DNA of 57,812 nucleotides, taken from contig CAMDWQ010000002.1 of the NCBI GenBank assembly GCA_945877765.1, positions 80,464 through 138,275 on the forward strand, in the 5' to 3' direction. Of the stretch, positions 2,141 through 57,812 are shown one piece after another. Both the position numbers and the translations under genes were made by a program. Origin of the DNA: Candidatus Omnitrophota bacterium (lineage in GTDB: Bacteria > Omnitrophota > Gorgyraeia > 2-02-FULL-51-18). The first letter of the stretch is position 1; each line of letters opens with the position of its first letter. Below the pieces are notes generated by a model that did not search any database, was not told the DNA's origin, and was given only the letters and a program-made list of their open reading frames with translations.

Positions 2141-4484
<2,344 letters not shown>

Positions 4485-6325: not shown

Positions 6326-7018
6326 ATGGATGGAATTTTATTATTTAATAAGCCGATATTGTGGACCAGTCATGATGCGGTCGATTTCGTTCGGCGTAAA
6401 GCAGGGCAGCGGTCAGTGGGTCATGCGGGCACGCTGGATCCTTTGGCGACGGGTCTGCTCCTGATTCTGCTGGGCAAAGGGACCAAGCGCTCCGACGAGC
6501 TGATGGGGCTGGACAAATCCTATGAAGGGACCATTCTTTTTGGGGTTGAAACCGATAGTTATGATTTGGATGGCAAGATTCAAAAATGGAATGATGGCGC
6601 TGGCTTGACCCAAGATCAGGTGTCTAAGGTTTTTGAATGTTTTACCGGAAAAATCTCCCAGATGCCGCCCGTTTTTTCGGCACTGAAAATAAATGGTAAA
6701 AAATCGTATGAGTTAGCTCGCACAGGAGAATCGGTATTGCTCAAAAGCCGCGAAGTCACCATCACGGATCTTTGTTTGAATTATTTTTATGAAAATGAAG
6801 CGGCTTTTTCTTTGTCTTGTTCAAAAGGAACCTACGTACGCTCGTTAGCGCATGATGCGGGGGAAAAACTCGGATGCGGGGGAGTGCTGTCTTCTCTTGT
6901 TCGTACGCGTATCGGTTCTTTTGATTTGAGCAAGGCGCTCTCTCAATTAGATCTTCAAACGATGACTCCAAAACAAATGGAAGAAAGCATATCCTGTGAA
7001 AATTTATTACGGGCCTGA
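6326..7018 (+). CDS. truB: tRNA pseudouridine(55) synthase (short form, no PUA domain)
   Basis: GHAGTLDPLATG, QMPPVFSALK.NGKKSYELAR, CSKGTYVRSLAHD. Confidence 0.95.
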   Translation: MDGILLFNKPILWTSHDAVDFVRRKAGQRSVGHAGTLDPLATGLLLILLGKGTKRSDELMGLDKSYEGTILFGVETDSYDLDGKIQKWNDGAGLTQDQVSKVFECFTGKISQMPPVFSALKINGKKSYELARTGESVLLKSREVTITDLCLNYFYENEAAFSLSCSKGTYVRSLAHDAGEKLGCGGVLSSLVRTRIGSFDLSKALSQLDLQTMTPKQMEESISCENLLRA

Positions 7019-10919: not shown

Positions 10920-13256
10920 ATGGAACAAAACAAAAAAAACGAAATTTTTGCTTTTTTCTGGTTTGTTGTTTCAGTGTTGACCCTAGTATCCCTCCTGTCT
11001 TTTACACCCGAGGACATTGCTTTTGAAGTTTCGATGCCTAACTCCCCAATTAGAAATTTTGCGGGGATTGCTGGCGCCTACACCGCTTGGTTTTTGGTGC
11101 TTTTGTTCGGCAAGACCGCCTATTTTCTTGTGCCGCTATTTTTATTCTGGGCACTGGCCAAGTGGGTTGGTAAAAAAGGTCAGTATCTCTGGCTTAAGAT
11201 TTTTTCAAGTGTCATTTTCTTTGCTTCGGCCTGCGCTCTTTTTTCACTCCTTAATTCCCATGAGGCGGTTTCGCGTTTTCATGCGGGCGGGCTCATCGGT
11301 TATTTTGTTTCACTATTTCTTTCCGGCCTTTTCGGCAAAACGTCTTTTTTTGTCGCACTAAGTCTTTTTGTCCTCTCCCTAATTTTAGCAACGGAGCTTC
11401 TTGTCCTTGAGATTGCCTCAAGCTTTTTTAAAAAATCAAAAGAGATGATTATTCCCGCCGGGTCCAAGAAAGAGGAGGTAGTCGAAAGGAAGCAGCTTGT
11501 TAAGCCAGCCGAAGGATTGAGTCATAAATTTGCCCAATTAAAAAATAATTTGAAAGAAAAAATACAGCCGGCCAAAGCAGGAACTCCAATGCCTGCGAAG
11601 CCGGAAATTAAACTTTCCATCCCCAAAGAAGAAAAGCCTAAGGTTGAAAGACCCAAGGCAGAAAATCTGCCAGTTGAAAGCCCTAAGATTCCCAAAACAT
11701 TATCGGGCATGGATGATCCTGATGACGAGGGTGCTTATGTGCTGCCATCGACGGACCTTTTGGAATCGCCGCCTTCAATGGATAGGGTAATGATGAAAAG
11801 CTCTCTTGAGGAAAGTTCGCGAGTACTGGAAGACACGCTGCGAGATTTTGGAATCGATGCCAAGGTGGTGGAAGTTGAGCAGGGGCCAACGATCACGCGT
11901 TATGAGCTCCAGCCGGCAGCCGGCGTGAAAGTACAAAAAATTACCTCCCTTGAGAATGATATTTCTTTGGCTATGCGCGCGACAAGCGTTCGCATTGTTG
12001 CCCCGATTCCTGGAAAATCGCGCGTGGGGATCGAAGTCCCCAACGCATCAGCCGCGACAGTTTATTTAAAGGATGTTCTTTTGTCTGCTGAATTTCAAAA
12101 GGAAACCTCCAAGATTGCCATTGTCATCGGTAAGGACACGGCCGGCGCGCCCCTGGTGTGCAATCTGGCGGACATGCCGCACCTTTTGATTGCCGGAGCC
12201 ACCAATACAGGCAAGAGCGTCTGCATCAATAGCATTATCACAAGCCTTCTGTATCGCGCGACACCCGAAGATGTGCGATTTATCATGATTGATCCTAAAA
12301 TGGTGGAGCTGCATTTTTACAATGATTTGCCGCATCAGATTTGTCCTGTTGTCACAGACAAGGCGAAAGCGCCGGGTATTTTGGCCTGGCTTTTAAGTGA
12401 AATGGAGCGCCGTTACAAGGTGCTTTCCAAAGTCGGCGCTAAAAATATACTCGCTTTCAATTCAAAGGTTGAAAATAAGGAAATCCGTCCCGAAACACTT
12501 CATCATTCGCCCGACGGGCAGAACGACGAGCCCATTGTGGTTCGGAAAATGCCCTACATTGTTCTGGTTATTGATGAGTTGGCCGATTTGATGATGGCTT
12601 CCGCACAAGAAGTGGAGACATCGATTACGCGCCTGGCTCAGCTGGCTCGGGCGGTGGGGATTCATATGATTTTAGCGACACAGCGTCCGTCGGTGGACGT
12701 CATCACCGGCGTCATCAAGGCTAATTTCCCTGCCCGCATTGCGTTTCAGGTGGCTTCCAAGGTTGACTCGCGCACGATTCTGGATGAAAATGGAGCTGAT
12801 AAGCTGCTGGGCCGAGGGGATTTGCTTTTGATGGATCCTCGAAAATCAAAATTGATACGAGCCCAGGGCGCCTGGGTGCAAGACGCTGAAATCGAGAAAG
12901 TGACTCGATTTATTAAGGCACAAAGAAAACCGAGTTTTGACTCTTCGGTGACGCAGAGCGTAGGTAAAAAACTTGTCGGCGGGGGTAATTTTGACCGCGA
13001 CGAAATCTATATGGAAGCCAAACGAATCGTGCTGGAGCTCAAACAGGCATCGGTTTCGACGATTCAGAGACGTATGGGCGTAGGTTATACGCGCGCGGCG
13101 CGGCTTATTGATATGATGGAAGAGGATGGGGTGGTGGGGCCGTATCGGGGAGCCAAACCTCGTGAAATTTTAGTCGAAACGCCCGGGGGCGATTCAACCG
13201 CCTCCGCCAAAGGCGGATCCGCCTCCGGCGGAAAAGAGGAAAAAGAAAACGAATGA
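10920..13256 (+). CDS. ftsK: DNA translocase FtsK/SpoIIIE
   Basis: N-terminal TM domain, Walker A GATNTGKS, IDPKMVEL, VIDELADLMM, ATQRPSVDVITG, gamma domain. Confidence 0.96.
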   Translation: MEQNKKNEIFAFFWFVVSVLTLVSLLSFTPEDIAFEVSMPNSPIRNFAGIAGAYTAWFLVLLFGKTAYFLVPLFLFWALAKWVGKKGQYLWLKIFSSVIFFASACALFSLLNSHEAVSRFHAGGLIGYFVSLFLSGLFGKTSFFVALSLFVLSLILATELLVLEIASSFFKKSKEMIIPAGSKKEEVVERKQLVKPAEGLSHKFAQLKNNLKEKIQPAKAGTPMPAKPEIKLSIPKEEKPKVERPKAENLPVESPKIPKTLSGMDDPDDEGAYVLPSTDLLESPPSMDRVMMKSSLEESSRVLEDTLRDFGIDAKVVEVEQGPTITRYELQPAAGVKVQKITSLENDISLAMRATSVRIVAPIPGKSRVGIEVPNASAATVYLKDVLLSAEFQKETSKIAIVIGKDTAGAPLVCNLADMPHLLIAGATNTGKSVCINSIITSLLYRATPEDVRFIMIDPKMVELHFYNDLPHQICPVVTDKAKAPGILAWLLSEMERRYKVLSKVGAKNILAFNSKVENKEIRPETLHHSPDGQNDEPIVVRKMPYIVLVIDELADLMMASAQEVETSITRLAQLARAVGIHMILATQRPSVDVITGVIKANFPARIAFQVASKVDSRTILDENGADKLLGRGDLLLMDPRKSKLIRAQGAWVQDAEIEKVTRFIKAQRKPSFDSSVTQSVGKKLVGGGNFDRDEIYMEAKRIVLELKQASVSTIQRRMGVGYTRAARLIDMMEEDGVVGPYRGAKPREILVETPGGDSTASAKGGSASGGKEEKENE
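13203..13232. repeat. 30-bp palindromic element inside the ftsK 3' end (encodes SAKGGSASGG)
   Basis: TCCGCCAAAGGCGGA-TCCGCCTCCGGCGGA: two tandem 15-bp hairpins, together an imperfect palindrome centred on GGATCC. Confidence 0.7.
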
Positions 13257-55309: not shown

Positions 55310-55319
55310 GCGTTCATAG

Positions 55320-55497
55320 GTGCTGCGCCGGGGCCTGTCCGGTAAATCCTTTCGGGCCGGCGTTTAATTTGCCCCGCCGTGGCAAATTAAACTCGGAGAT
55401 GAGGGCTCGCTCGTCCCCATCTATTACGATGGGGACACCGTGGCCGCTCGCCTCATCTACGCGTCCCAAAAAGATTTAACGGCCACCCGGCGCACAC
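55320..55497. repeat. ~180-nt nested palindromic element (multibranch stem-loop)
   Basis: Outer TGCGCCGGG/CCCGGCGCA and TAAATC/GATTTA; inner GTTTAATTTGCC/GGCAAATTAAAC, AGATGAGG/CCTCATCT, GTCCCCATC/GATGGGGAC. Confidence 0.7.
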
Positions 55498-55787
55498 TGG
55501 ACTTTTATTATTTAAAAATGTAATACTTGAGGTATATATTTTGAGGGTATCCGTGAAGACATCTATAAGTATCGTGGATGCCCTAAGAGCTGTTCGTTAT
55601 CAGTCCAAATCCTCCAAACAATCGTCCTGAAATTTAAAAATTCTAAAGTTAACAAAAAAACCTCGTTTTATCACCCTGTTTAGAAACAACATTTAATTTG
55701 TATTTATTGAAGTCTGCGGGCATACTTTGGTTAATAAATAGTTAGATCAAGGGGTGCGTTTTATGGTTTCCTGTAGGGTGAAATTGT

Positions 55788-57812
55788 ATGTCTAAAAAGA
55801 AGCGCTTAAGTCTAAGACTTATTGCGGCTATTCTTATCGGGACGTTTGCGTATTCTCAAGCCGCGCAGGCGGCTCCTGGCGTGGCATCGCCACCAGTGAT
55901 ATCGTCGGCACTTGCACGTGATCCTTCAATTTTTCAAGTGCCCGCCGCATCTTCTCGTCTGCGTGAAATCCATCGCGGTTCCAACGGTCTTTTCATGATC
56001 CACATTCAGGATGCGCATTCGAATCTGAGTGGTCAGCAAAATTTGGCCGCCACGCTTGATTCGATCATGGAAAACTATCACGTGTCGCTGGTCCTAGTCG
56101 AGGGCGGTTCGCGTGACGATTCGCTCACGGTGATCAAGCAAGTCGCCTCAGCGGCCACGTGGAAGCGCGTCGCTAAGAGTTTTTTATTTGAAGGAAAGAT
56201 ATCCGGCGAAGAATATCTCAATCTGATCTCCGACCGCCCGATGAAAATCATGGGCATCGAGGACCGCGCACTTTACTTGGATAGCGTGAGGGCATACGCC
56301 GATCTCGCCGCGCGACGCGAGGACATACTGGGGTATTTGAAACTTATCACAGCCGCGCTCGAGAAAGTGAAAAAGCGCCTCTACCCCGAAGAACTGCTTA
56401 CCTATGAAAAAGAACGCAAGACCCGCCGCGACCGCGAGGCTGACGACACAGGGCACCGTGAGGTGTTGAAGCTAGCCGCGCGGGCCGGACTTGATCTCGG
56501 GCGCTATCCTGTCCTTTCGGCACTCGCTCGCATTGAAGCTCGCGAGAAGGAAATTAGTTTTGAGGCAGCTTCGCTTGAGCAAGCTGCGCTCGTCGAAGCG
56601 GTGGCCGCGAGGGGCGGCACGGCGGATCTGGATGAGTATCTGCAACAATCCGCTGCCGCGAAAGGGCAGAAGATTTCCCAGTACACGCATTTTCGAAGTC
56701 TGTTCGAGGCGGCCGAGCGGTCCCATGTGAGCATTCAAGCCTATCCCGAGCTTGCCAAATACGGCGCCTACCTCGAGGAGTTTTCGGCGATTGATCTCGA
56801 CCGCATCGTCGATGAATTGACGCGCGCGGAAGACGACGCGTATGCGGTCCTCCTCACTCAAGACGATCAGCGCCTGGCGCGCGGGATCGACCGCTACCTC
56901 GGACTCCTCGAGACCGCGTATAAAATCCAGATGAGCACGCGCGAATTCGCATTTTTCAAATTGAACGAAACGGATTTCGGAACGACGCGCCACCTGGCGT
57001 TTATCAACCGCAAACTCGCCGAAAACGGCTATGCCGGGGAAATGATCCCGTACCGCGATATTTTGGAAAAAGGCAAGGAAGCGCTTGGGACATTTTACGA
57101 TTCCGTGGAACAGCGCGATTTCGCCTTCATGCGCAACGCCGAGCGGATCATGAAAGAGGAAAAGCAGGATACCGCCGTGCTTATTTCCGGCGGCTACCAC
57201 ACGCCGCACCTGAAACATCTCCTGCGCGAAAAAGGATATTCGTACGCCGTGGTCACGCCGGTGGTGACGTCCGCGACGAATCAGGCCAAATACGAGCGGC
57301 TTCTTCTTGCGCCGCTGAATGGTGAAGCTCCCCAATCGAAGACGACGCGTGAATCTCGCGACGACAGCATCAGAGTGGTGGCCGCCGCCGAGAGTGACCG
57401 CTTTTATAATCTGCTTAGCCAGGCGGTGGTGTCTCCCGAGGCCGAAGAATTGGCTGCTCGCATCGCGCTGGAGTATAAGTTGGGCCAAACTTCAACCGGC
57501 GATGCCAAAGAGGTTCTCTTATCCACGGCAGCTGTCGCTACCCCTAAGAAATCTGCCGCAGTGATTCCGCCCGTCACCGTTGCGGCACGGCTGAGCGCTT
57601 CTGATAAGTCGCAAGCCCTCAAAGAACTCCGCCGCAAATTGAAACAAACCGAATCGGATATCAAGGGGTATCTTAAATTTTCTAAAACCTTCCTCCTGGA
57701 ATCTCCCATAAGCCAGGCAAATAAAGACCTTGATGATACCCCGGAAGGTATTTTTGATAAATCTCCTTATTCAGATGATATTGCAAGAATCATTCATATC
57801 GCTAATATTCTG
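55788..57812 (+). CDS. Large secreted protein, 3'-truncated (at least 675 aa), giant-protein-type N-terminal domain
   Basis: Hand translation from ATG 55788 gives no stop before the window end. Signal peptide MSKKKRLSLRLIAAILIGTFAYSQAAQA; motifs IHIQDAH, VLVEGG, GIED..LY, RDFAFMRN, AVLISGGYHT..L, G.SY.VVTP. Confidence 0.85.
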   Translation, partial: MSKKKRLSLRLIAAILIGTFAYSQAAQAAPGVASPPVISSALARDPSIFQVPAASSRLREIHRGSNGLFMIHIQDAHSNLSGQQNLAATLDSIMENYHVSLVLVEGGSRDDSLTVIKQVASAATWKRVAKSFLFEGKISGEEYLNLISDRPMKIMGIEDRALYLDSVRAYADLAARREDILGYLKLITAALEKVKKRLYPEELLTYEKERKTRRDREADDTGHREVLKLAARAGLDLGRYPVLSALARIEAREKEISFEAASLEQAALVEAVAARGGTADLDEYLQQSAAAKGQKISQYTHFRSLFEAAERSHVSIQAYPELAKYGAYLEEFSAIDLDRIVDELTRAEDDAYAVLLTQDDQRLARGIDRYLGLLETAYKIQMSTREFAFFKLNETDFGTTRHLAFINRKLAENGYAGEMIPYRDILEKGKEALGTFYDSVEQRDFAFMRNAERIMKEEKQDTAVLISGGYHTPHLKHLLREKGYSYAVVTPVVTSATNQAKYERLLLAPLNGEAPQSKTTRESRDDSIRVVAAAESDRFYNLLSQAVVSPEAEELAARIALEYKLGQTSTGDAKEVLLSTAAVATPKKSAAVIPPVTVAARLSASDKSQALKELRRKLKQTESDIKGYLKFSKTFLLESPISQANKDLDDTPEGIFDKSPYSDDIARIIHIANIL

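Follow-up and report, generated by a model that had tools for sequence, protein, structure and literature searches.

An open reading frame (ORF) begins at position 55788 of the 57,812-nucleotide stretch of Candidatus Omnitrophota DNA analysed here (contig CAMDWQ010000002.1; hereafter the window) and runs off its end. It is very probably the 5' end of a gene for a long, Sec-exported protein of several thousand residues in an Omnitrophota-type bacterium. Its N-terminal domain, which we call the head, belongs to a family that occurs as several paralogs in a genome and caps thousands of large proteins. Behind the head close relatives lose all similarity, and a five-residue motif, G-A-R-[LM]-A, marks the junction and recurs through the bodies. 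With modest confidence we favour the view that a head with a hydrolase fold caps a cassette-built, exported, polymorphic giant protein. "Giant" means "very large" here, below the class of >30 thousand residues (kaa) called giant in the literature.

The frame at 55788-57812 (+) starts with ATG and meets no stop in 675 codons, reaching the final base of the window. An earlier note on this DNA, made from the letters alone, had described it, and translation confirms it; it is absent from the ORF list solely because the list leaves out ORFs running off the window end. At the N-terminus, MSKKKRLSLRLIAAILIGTFAYSQAAQA|AP, residues 1-28 (55788-55871, +) look like a cleavable Sec (type I) signal, with a K/R-rich n-region, a hydrophobic core of ~14 residues and a predicted AQA|AP cleavage site. 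The hydrophobic core and the A-x-A|AP site are conserved across homologs in the alignment, and the AlphaFold2 model gives a helix (3-28) followed by a low-confidence linker (30-35). The signal peptide of the earlier note is therefore retained as a prediction with the expected n/h/c layout. The motifs that it had put in order are also found, at exact coordinates: HIQDAH starts at residue 72 (nucleotide 56001), VEG at 104, GIED at 156, RD.AF..N at 443 and GGYH at 468 (nucleotide 57189). They are not a chance occurrence, since their key residues are near-invariant in 181 relatives.

The head comprises residues ~50-515 and is modelled confidently as a ~470-residue domain, in which an alpha/beta core is divided by a helical insert or lid (AlphaFold2 model of residues 1-520 with 46 homologs in the alignment; predicted local distance difference test, pLDDT, 91.6; predicted template modelling score 0.86). 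Six strands alternate with helices. In the N-terminal half of the core (residues 48-166, 55929-56285, +; pLDDT > 90), the beta-hairpin 56-62/69-75 ends in D75-A-H77 and is followed by a helix, strand 101-104 (LVLVEGG) ends in E105, and strand 153-156 is found with G156-x-E158. The C-terminal half (residues 425-511, 57060-57320, +), delimited by the model and by conservation, begins with a long helix (425-457) which bears F436-Y437 and R443-D-x-x-F-x-x-N450. Strand 462-468 ends in G468-G-Y-H471 and leads into a helix and strand 485-491. Between the two halves lies an all-helical insertion of ~265 residues (160-424; 56265-57059, +), modelled as 14 helices with pLDDT mostly 85-97 and found in all relatives in the alignment.

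Conservation was counted over 181 diverse family members. Fully conserved are D75, N79 and E105 (177/177 each), E158 (178/178), R443 (179/179) and G468, G469 and H471 (178/178 each), and F447 and N450 are kept in 171/179 and 166/179. H72 is conserved in only 158/177 sequences while H77 is conserved in 176/177; thus H77 is the relevant early His. The putative catalytic set, as read from the sequence, consists of D75-x-H77 (56010-56018, +), E105 (56100-56102, +), and R443 and H471 in the block R443...N450...G468-G-Y-H471 (57114-57200, +).

The core is likely to have the hydrolase fold of the TIKI/EreA/ChaN superfamily. According to the RRSP structure paper, this superfamily unites Tiki, Ere/Bcr135, ChaN, HopBA1, PMT and RRSP around a 2His/2Glu active site, which in RRSP is E3900-x-H3902, E3930 and H4030, with R4001 required for substrate, and in Bcr135 includes the catalytic pair H85/E113 (PMC6254334). 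Members include site-specific peptidases, and PMT keeps the fold without activity, its catalytic set lost (PMC6254334). The order of the 2His/2Glu set is reproduced in the head. D75-A-H77 is the putative counterpart of the E-x-H of RRSP, and the spacing from acid-x-His to Glu is 28, the same as between H3902 and E3930 of RRSP and between H85 and E113 of Bcr135. On the helix preceding the G-x-x-H strand, the R..(M/F)..N helix of the ChaN/Ere branch, R443 sits 28 residues from H471, versus 29 between R4001 and H4030. The head and TIKI members share a hairpin followed by the His, a Glu ending the next strand, an Arg helix and a strand ending in G-x-x-H. The head differs in that its first acid is Asp instead of Glu, in its extra invariant residues (N79, Q83, E158, Y163, K195 and F436-Y437) and in the helical insertion that divides its core. 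Moreover, it stands behind a signal peptide at the N-terminus of proteins of several thousand residues, whereas RRSP is an internal effector.

Structure and profile comparisons point in the same direction and to no other sensible family, although no match is significant by itself. Two Foldseek runs against the PDB with independent models both recover Bcr135 (3B55), EreC (6XCS/6XCQ), ChaN (2G5G) and HopBA1 (5T09), at ranks 11, 13, 41 and 44 in the first run and 2, 5/6, 22 and 25 in the second. These are the same neighbours that are given for RRSP (PMC6254334). EreC has the top probability in both runs (0.47 and 0.57), and the four highest probabilities in the first run belong to EreC, McpZ, Bcr135 and ChaN. 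The TIKI-type matches have E = 0.12-1.9 and template modelling scores of at most 0.27, low values because the helical insert dominates the comparison and draws coiled-coil and pore-toxin matches. A Pfam scan of the cores of 32 members most often returns ChaN PF04187, in 7 of them with a best E of 0.0048, and DUF5694, in 5 with a best E of 0.0038. Both fall on the C-terminal R..N..GxxH region in consistent register, ChaN with the R..N..GGxH region on the C-terminal end of the profile (positions 141-203/213). The window protein itself matches DUF5694 below threshold (E = 0.024, 16.1 bits, cut-off 27.5; residues 427-483 onto profile positions 118-174/185), and the best E among family members is 0.0018. 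We take DUF5694 to be in the same clan as the TIKI superfamily. No other annotation of the head comes from the curated libraries, neither NCBIfam nor PDB sequences giving any. The fold, which the earlier note had already proposed, rests on this convergent weak evidence and on the exact motif fit, without formal membership: residue order and spacing agree, while all profile and Foldseek scores stay below threshold and a profile-profile alignment is negative.

The head family is large. A word-indexed search gives 47 relatives of 394-1,119 residues, and every one with an organism given is from Omnitrophota/Omnitrophica; one JGI protein is labelled MotE. An exhaustive profile search changes the scale: 9,731 cluster representatives pass E <= 1e-3, and 6,603 of them also pass E <= 1e-30. 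Among 133 newly listed close relatives from this search, 118 have at least 1,200 residues, with a maximum of 7,482. The head is N-terminal in all listed matches, starting within the first ~43 residues, and occupies positions ~2-600. In a GTDB scan with one genome per species and a close look at the best 80 loci, at least 549 loci are confirmed. Among the best 80, each metagenome-assembled genome (MAG) carries 2-5 loci, so the count of paralogs that the earlier note had suggested comes out in favour of a multi-copy family. The record titles are Omnitrophota/Omnitrophica or, in many cases, "uncultured Planctomycetia bacterium"; one Candidatus Eisenbacteria MAG (four loci) and one 2.3-kb Candidatus Saccharibacteria contig are also found. 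The titles outside Omnitrophota probably reflect labelling or binning issues and no real spread beyond the phylum.

The N-terminal position also holds in the 78 GTDB loci with a visible N-terminus, where HIQDAH lies at most 192 residues past the upstream stop (63-147 in all except one). Twenty of these 78 ORFs close inside the locus, at 521-3,242 residues, and 58 reach the locus end, 17 of them still open beyond 3,500 residues. Of the 20 closed ORFs, 6 are truly under 1,100 residues, two more apparent short ones being artefacts of N gaps, and ~45 of the 51 ORFs of judgeable length have at least 1,500 residues. We are highly confident that the head caps large polymorphic proteins. Short complete relatives do exist, with 618 (P0001), 939 (P0011) and 1,232 residues (P0062). 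The more distant members are stand-alone heads of ~530 residues, located directly upstream of or between very large co-oriented genes (L004, L005/L006, L007, L009). Their neighbours include a 6,949-residue SecA/kinase/M48 protein, a 1,279-residue FBPase protein, a 1,226-residue enolase protein, PPDK-containing ORFs, UDPGP with Glu/Leu/Phe/Val dehydrogenase (ELFV_dehydrog) and ORFs of 2,846 and 3,300 residues.

Two observations on gene architecture belong here. P0001, the closest relative in the word-indexed search, is a complete 618-residue head that ends 20 residues past its second motif (GARMAE). Its end is overlapped by a 622-residue ORF in another frame, which has no Pfam match, no signal peptide and one GARMSE. 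The arrangement recurs in three samples (L001 236-3945; L002, L003), and three readings of the pair are possible: a genuine split, a programmed frameshift, or a gene in decay. At L067 and L092 apparent splits of head and body genes were rejected. N runs interrupt these head ORFs at ~11959-12133 (L067) and ~6713-6849 (L092), with duplicated coding sequence on either side (for example ADQRILNAIQSLKARNI...). Tandem protein repeats broke the scaffolding there, so that gaps mimic split genes.

The boundary between head and body is sharp. The nearest relative of the window protein, P0078, is a complete gene of 4,376 residues which lies beside the nuo operon and hence is not at the orthologous locus. 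The two proteins are 77.6% identical over residues 1-582 and have no similarity afterwards. In 218 pairs of relatives whose heads are at least 55% identical, the similarity always stops 451-560 residues past the HIQDAH anchor, and in the closest pairs similarity between paralogs stops within ~10 residues of the junction motif. The break at 582 and the sizes of the 118 large relatives bear out the earlier view of a conserved N-terminal domain heading very large, polymorphic multi-domain proteins. The body domains in the four relatives scanned with Pfam (P0078, P0052, P0058 and P0084) include kinase, FHA, HATPase, amylase and RelA/SpoT.

In the window protein the head is followed by a linker (residues 512-603, 57321-57596, +) and the start of the variable body (residues 604-675, 57597-57812, +). 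A model of residues 1-675 shows disorder at 515-531 and 570-604 and helices at 527-545 and 550-568, and the body opens with a helix at 604-638. The linker was expected to be rich in A/P/T/K. It is present, with residues 515-600 rich in A/S/V/T/E instead, and the divergent module expected near AARLSA (residue 599, nucleotide 57582) does begin there, as a helical module from 604 after the disordered stretch. On another contig, discussed below, the body reaches at least residue 845. No homolog of residues 521-845 is found in the word-indexed search, and for residues 585-845 there is neither a credible match in Pfam or the PDB nor any match in a head-bearing relative. The 622-residue gene after P0001 and the C-terminus of P0002 were compared as possible counterparts of this tail, and neither matches.

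The junction motif, G/A-A/S-R-L/M-A/S, is found behind the head and throughout the bodies, exceeding chance by 150-400-fold. GARL is observed 382 times in the 118 large relatives with 19 expected, and GARM 139 times with 3.7 expected. When all 5-mers of the bodies alone are ranked without bias, GARMA comes first (108 observed, 0.27 expected, 407-fold) and GARLA third behind the overlapping SGARM (229 observed, 1.5 expected, 155-fold). The logo is G(.81)/A, A(.87)/S, R(1.0), L(.75)/M(.25), A(.69)/S, with a weak S/A preference one position before and otherwise no conservation in the flanks. The L/M position does not admit Ile, Val or Phe (GARI 11, GARV 18 and GARF 25 versus GARL 382). The first copies are at a fixed place, typically paired at ~560 and ~598 (clusters at ~548-565 and ~590-622), and later copies follow with a median spacing of ~290 residues. 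Both first copies are present in degenerate form in the window protein. A-A-R-I-A (residues 556-560, 57453-57467, +) aligns with GARLA/GSRLA of relatives and lies inside helix 550-568, the block 551-560 having a pLDDT of ~85. A-A-R-L-S (residues 599-603, 57582-57596, +) is located at the end of the disordered linker and directly precedes the first body helix.

The distribution of the motif marks it as a boundary of modules. In the four scanned relatives it is never located inside a Pfam domain, and several copies bracket one. P0084 has motifs at 2365 and 2581 around a HATPase domain (2453-2562) and at 2859 and 3139 around His_Phos (2902-3093). In P0058 an FHA domain (3236-3290) is followed by a motif at 3294, and in P0052 a motif at 2905 separates a kinase from an FHA domain. 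Motif density is 1.17 per 1,000 residues in head ORFs versus 0.14 in other ORFs of at least 300 residues at the same loci. Of 29 matches outside head ORFs, 23 fall in three giant ORFs, two being head ORFs interrupted by N-run gaps and one an upstream tandem giant; the density in unrelated ORFs of the same loci is ~0.03. In the housekeeping genes of the window the motif is at background level. One perfect GARMA pentapeptide is encoded at ~10801 (+), in an open frame shortly before the annotated start of a 778-residue ORF (10920-13256), probably by coincidence, the count in the window being at chance level.

Direct comparison of two populations shows what happens at these sites. L010 and L098 represent one orthologous locus, their downstream glmU-like genes sharing 99.8% identity, and the head proteins P0011 and P0062 are 93.7% identical up to ...NSAARMA. 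P0062 then has an extra module of ~295 residues ending in ...GSRMA, after which the two proteins run together again. A whole cassette has been gained or lost exactly between two motif copies.

We tentatively propose, at somewhat less than even odds, that the head cleaves at the motif. The signal peptide would be cleaved and the protein exported via Sec. The exported head would then act as an endopeptidase or related hydrolase and recognise exposed GAR[L/M]|A linkers, either in cis on the chain that it heads or in trans on the product of a neighbouring gene. Cutting at the linkers would mature or release the modules, akin to MARTX autoprocessing or a viral polyprotein, and the motif would double as a joint for module gain, loss and swap. 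We infer an endopeptidase because members of the TIKI superfamily include site-specific peptidases, because a short site with strict P4-P1' preferences and no conserved flanks is typical of a protease, and because the similarly built MARTX toxins are processed after Leu between effectors; their cysteine protease domain (CPD) sites have Leu at P1 and a small residue at P1'. Sites of signal peptidase I, prepilin peptidase and double-glycine (C39) type were considered for the motif and rejected because of its invariant Arg with Leu/Met and the lack of upstream conservation. In its full form, in which head-bearing proteins are bacterial polyproteins, exported interchangeable enzyme cassettes cut by their own N-terminal TIKI-type protease at sites doubling as joints, the idea is speculative and we would not bet on it.

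Several observations weigh against this picture. For the fold, the best Pfam score is 17.4 bits (ChaN PF04187) with a cut-off of 27.7, so no curated threshold is reached, and no Foldseek match is significant (best E 0.07-0.12). Searches of PDB sequences, whether started from the protein, from the family profile or from a profile of the core, give coiled-coil or chance matches and no TIKI member. hhalign of the core with an E. coli YbaP/TraB alignment gives a probability of 0.24, a weak negative since this alignment is shallow (effective number of sequences ~2) and TraB is a more distant branch. The superfamily also includes esterases and non-catalytic binders. Against cleavage, it counts most that the motif is not shared by all relatives, whereas the catalytic set is. 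No motif is found in ~13,000 residues of giant genes adjoining stand-alone heads, 15 of the 118 large relatives are without it, and P0078 has one. Hence either the function of the head is independent of the motif or its specificity differs between clades. A k-mer enrichment scan of the giant genes adjoining stand-alone heads gives no equivalent enriched k-mer. The first copy in the window protein is degenerate (AARIA) and modelled within a helix. Finally, some relatives end at 600-1,100 residues, and the window ORF is known to at least 845.

A head that is a TIKI-fold hydrolase (esterase, amidase or peptidase) could instead act on an external substrate, either the cell's own envelope during export or insertion or the surface of a host or prey. 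GAR[LM]A would then have nothing to do with the chemistry of the head and would mark a linker or joint, or serve another protease as its site, for instance C39 or S8 domains like those reported on other Omnitrophota giants. We regard this as possible, with the odds clearly against it. In its favour, the catalytic residues stay invariant in stand-alone heads and in relatives with motif-less bodies, the best fold probabilities are those of erythromycin esterases, and the literature suggests that C39/S8 domains may process these proteins and that the proteins may degrade cell walls in predation. However, the motif is almost confined to head-bearing ORFs in the loci examined, its first copies keep a fixed distance behind the head, and the four large relatives scanned have no C39 or S8 domain. 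It is improbable that the head is a non-catalytic binding or anchoring module, comparable to haem-binding ChaN or the inactive PMT C2 domain, which tethers the exported chain or gives it order and possibly binds GAR[LM]A peptides. ChaN is the top Pfam family, PMT demonstrates that inactive TIKI folds exist, and the helix with the first motif copy is modelled confidently, as if packed on the head. On the other hand, the full 2His/acid set and the Arg are conserved at 99-100% in ~180 diverse sequences, which is the pattern of active members, unlike PMT.

The motif might also be read at the level of DNA or translation, as a recombination site or as internal starts at CTG/TTG/ATG, and this we consider very improbable. 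Codons at the motif are biased (GGC 0.67 versus 0.40 in the background, CGG 0.61 versus 0.23, CTG 0.46 versus 0.22), ~80% of the L/M codons could serve as starts, and indels and homology breaks coincide with the motif. Yet 142 sites in GTDB loci L019-L096 are encoded by 96 distinct 15-mers in which all synonymous codons occur, AGA/AGG for Arg included, and therefore the constraint is at the peptide level. Upstream conservation is lacking, and the exclusion of Ile, Val and Phe indicates a side-chain and not a nucleotide preference. The remaining doubt concerns the window gene itself, which could end within a few hundred codons of the window end and encode the head with one or two modules. The complete relatives of 618, 939 and 1,232 residues and the 6 of 20 closed GTDB ORFs under 1,100 residues provide precedents. 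We nevertheless think this unlikely, the ORF already having at least 845 codons and being open, its nearest relative having 4,376 residues and ~45 of 51 judgeable ORFs at least 1,500; the assembly breaks inside the gene also fit a repeated head with a variable body.

The favoured architecture, a head on an exported chain of cassettes, has partial parallels among known systems. Like MARTX toxins, the head proteins are very long and exported and have exchangeable modules with short inter-module sites. In MARTX a built-in protease frees the modules, and effector repertoires vary between strains. That protease, a cysteine protease domain activated by inositol phosphate, lies near the C-terminus, and export is by type I secretion with RTX repeats. 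The head proteins have an N-terminal Sec signal, a putative TIKI-type head and a stricter G-A-R-L/M-A site, at which cleavage is proposed by analogy; no CPD, RTX or type I secretion Pfam matches are found in P0078, P0052, P0058 and P0084. With polymorphic toxins (CdiA VENN, Rhs DPxGL) they share a conserved N-terminus, a demarcation motif and unrelated C-terminal parts in close relatives. The variable part of the head proteins is thousands of residues long and multi-domain, with the motif recurring, whereas polymorphic toxins end in one small toxin tip. An immunity gene is not apparent, the downstream genes being ordinary (glmU-like, L010 and L098) or further giants, and no toxin families were matched by Pfam in the four scanned bodies.

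A further parallel is offered by the Omnitrophota giants (Archaeovorin-type, Dockerin-type and multi-enzyme metabolic), with which the head proteins share the phylum, the signal peptide and the mosaic of enzyme domains. The published giants have 10-147 kaa and N-terminal C39/S8 peptidases, and the head proteins mostly 1-7.5 kaa. Preprints on these giants describe N-terminal regions generally without identifiable domains besides C39/S8 peptidases, suggest that these peptidases might cleave the giants and list multi-enzyme giants with signal peptides. They do not mention a TIKI-like head or the GAR[LM]A motif, and literature text searches gave nothing relevant on the motif or on polyprotein processing in Omnitrophota. 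We regard the heads as a new and very large family, probably of a known superfamily, whose domain context and junction motif are new too.

These results bear on how the very long Omnitrophota proteins work and how the cell handles them. An N-terminal domain common to ~10,000 protein clusters now has a name and a probable chemistry, and there is direct comparative evidence for module insertion and swapping at a five-residue motif that delimits modules. The motif offers annotators a handle for dividing these ORFs into units, and whether and by what the giants are processed becomes bench-testable. Should the polyprotein idea be true, viral polyproteins and MARTX toxins would have a counterpart encoded on chromosomes by several paralogs, and the use of multi-thousand-residue genes by these bacteria would be explained.

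The length of the window ORF was followed through other assemblies of one study, using the neighbouring nadC protein as query. The same locus is present in five of them, and each ends upstream of or inside the ORF, none past codon 845. Contig L011, near-identical to the window, carries the identical gene, open for at least 845 codons up to the contig end; the window ORF thus has at least 845 residues. Break points inside the gene are found at codons 444, 676 and 845 in the other assemblies (L011-L014, L097) and at codon 675 in the window. Such breaks would be expected if short-read assemblers are misled by a head present in many copies and a body that varies between strains. An exact-match scan of JGI metagenome contigs gave nothing extending the ORF. 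The contig extension suggested in the earlier note therefore goes no further than codon 845, and its "giant" holds for relatives of up to 7,482 residues, below the >30 kaa class, with the window ORF itself seen to at least 845. We expect, with good confidence, that the complete protein exceeds 1,500 residues.

Upstream of the ORF the window contains ordinary housekeeping genes: gpsA, hom, thrC, a phosphoglycerate-mutase-like gene, ask, a leuA/cimA-like gene, valS and nadC. Between nadC and the ORF lies an AT-richer intergenic leader of 478 nucleotides (55310-55787, +), with a GC content of 43.7% versus 48.1% for the window, in which a promoter scan finds weak sigma-70-like sites at ~55511-55540. 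Directly after the nadC stop, at 55310-55465 (+), three hairpins are predicted within an enclosing stem (dG -71.7 kcal/mol, z = -3.66 versus shuffles). The leader scan gave no credible Rfam match for this element, and it has no T-run terminator. It could be a terminator, an insulator or a repeat element.

The head-coding part (55788-57347) has a GC content of 55.6%, against 48.1% for the window and 49.9% for the tail. The raised value may come from the amino-acid composition, or from exchange or gene conversion among head paralogs. A 338-residue antisense ORF at 56472-57488 (-) lies entirely within the head-coding region; most likely it is the shadow of the sense frame, which is richer in GC.

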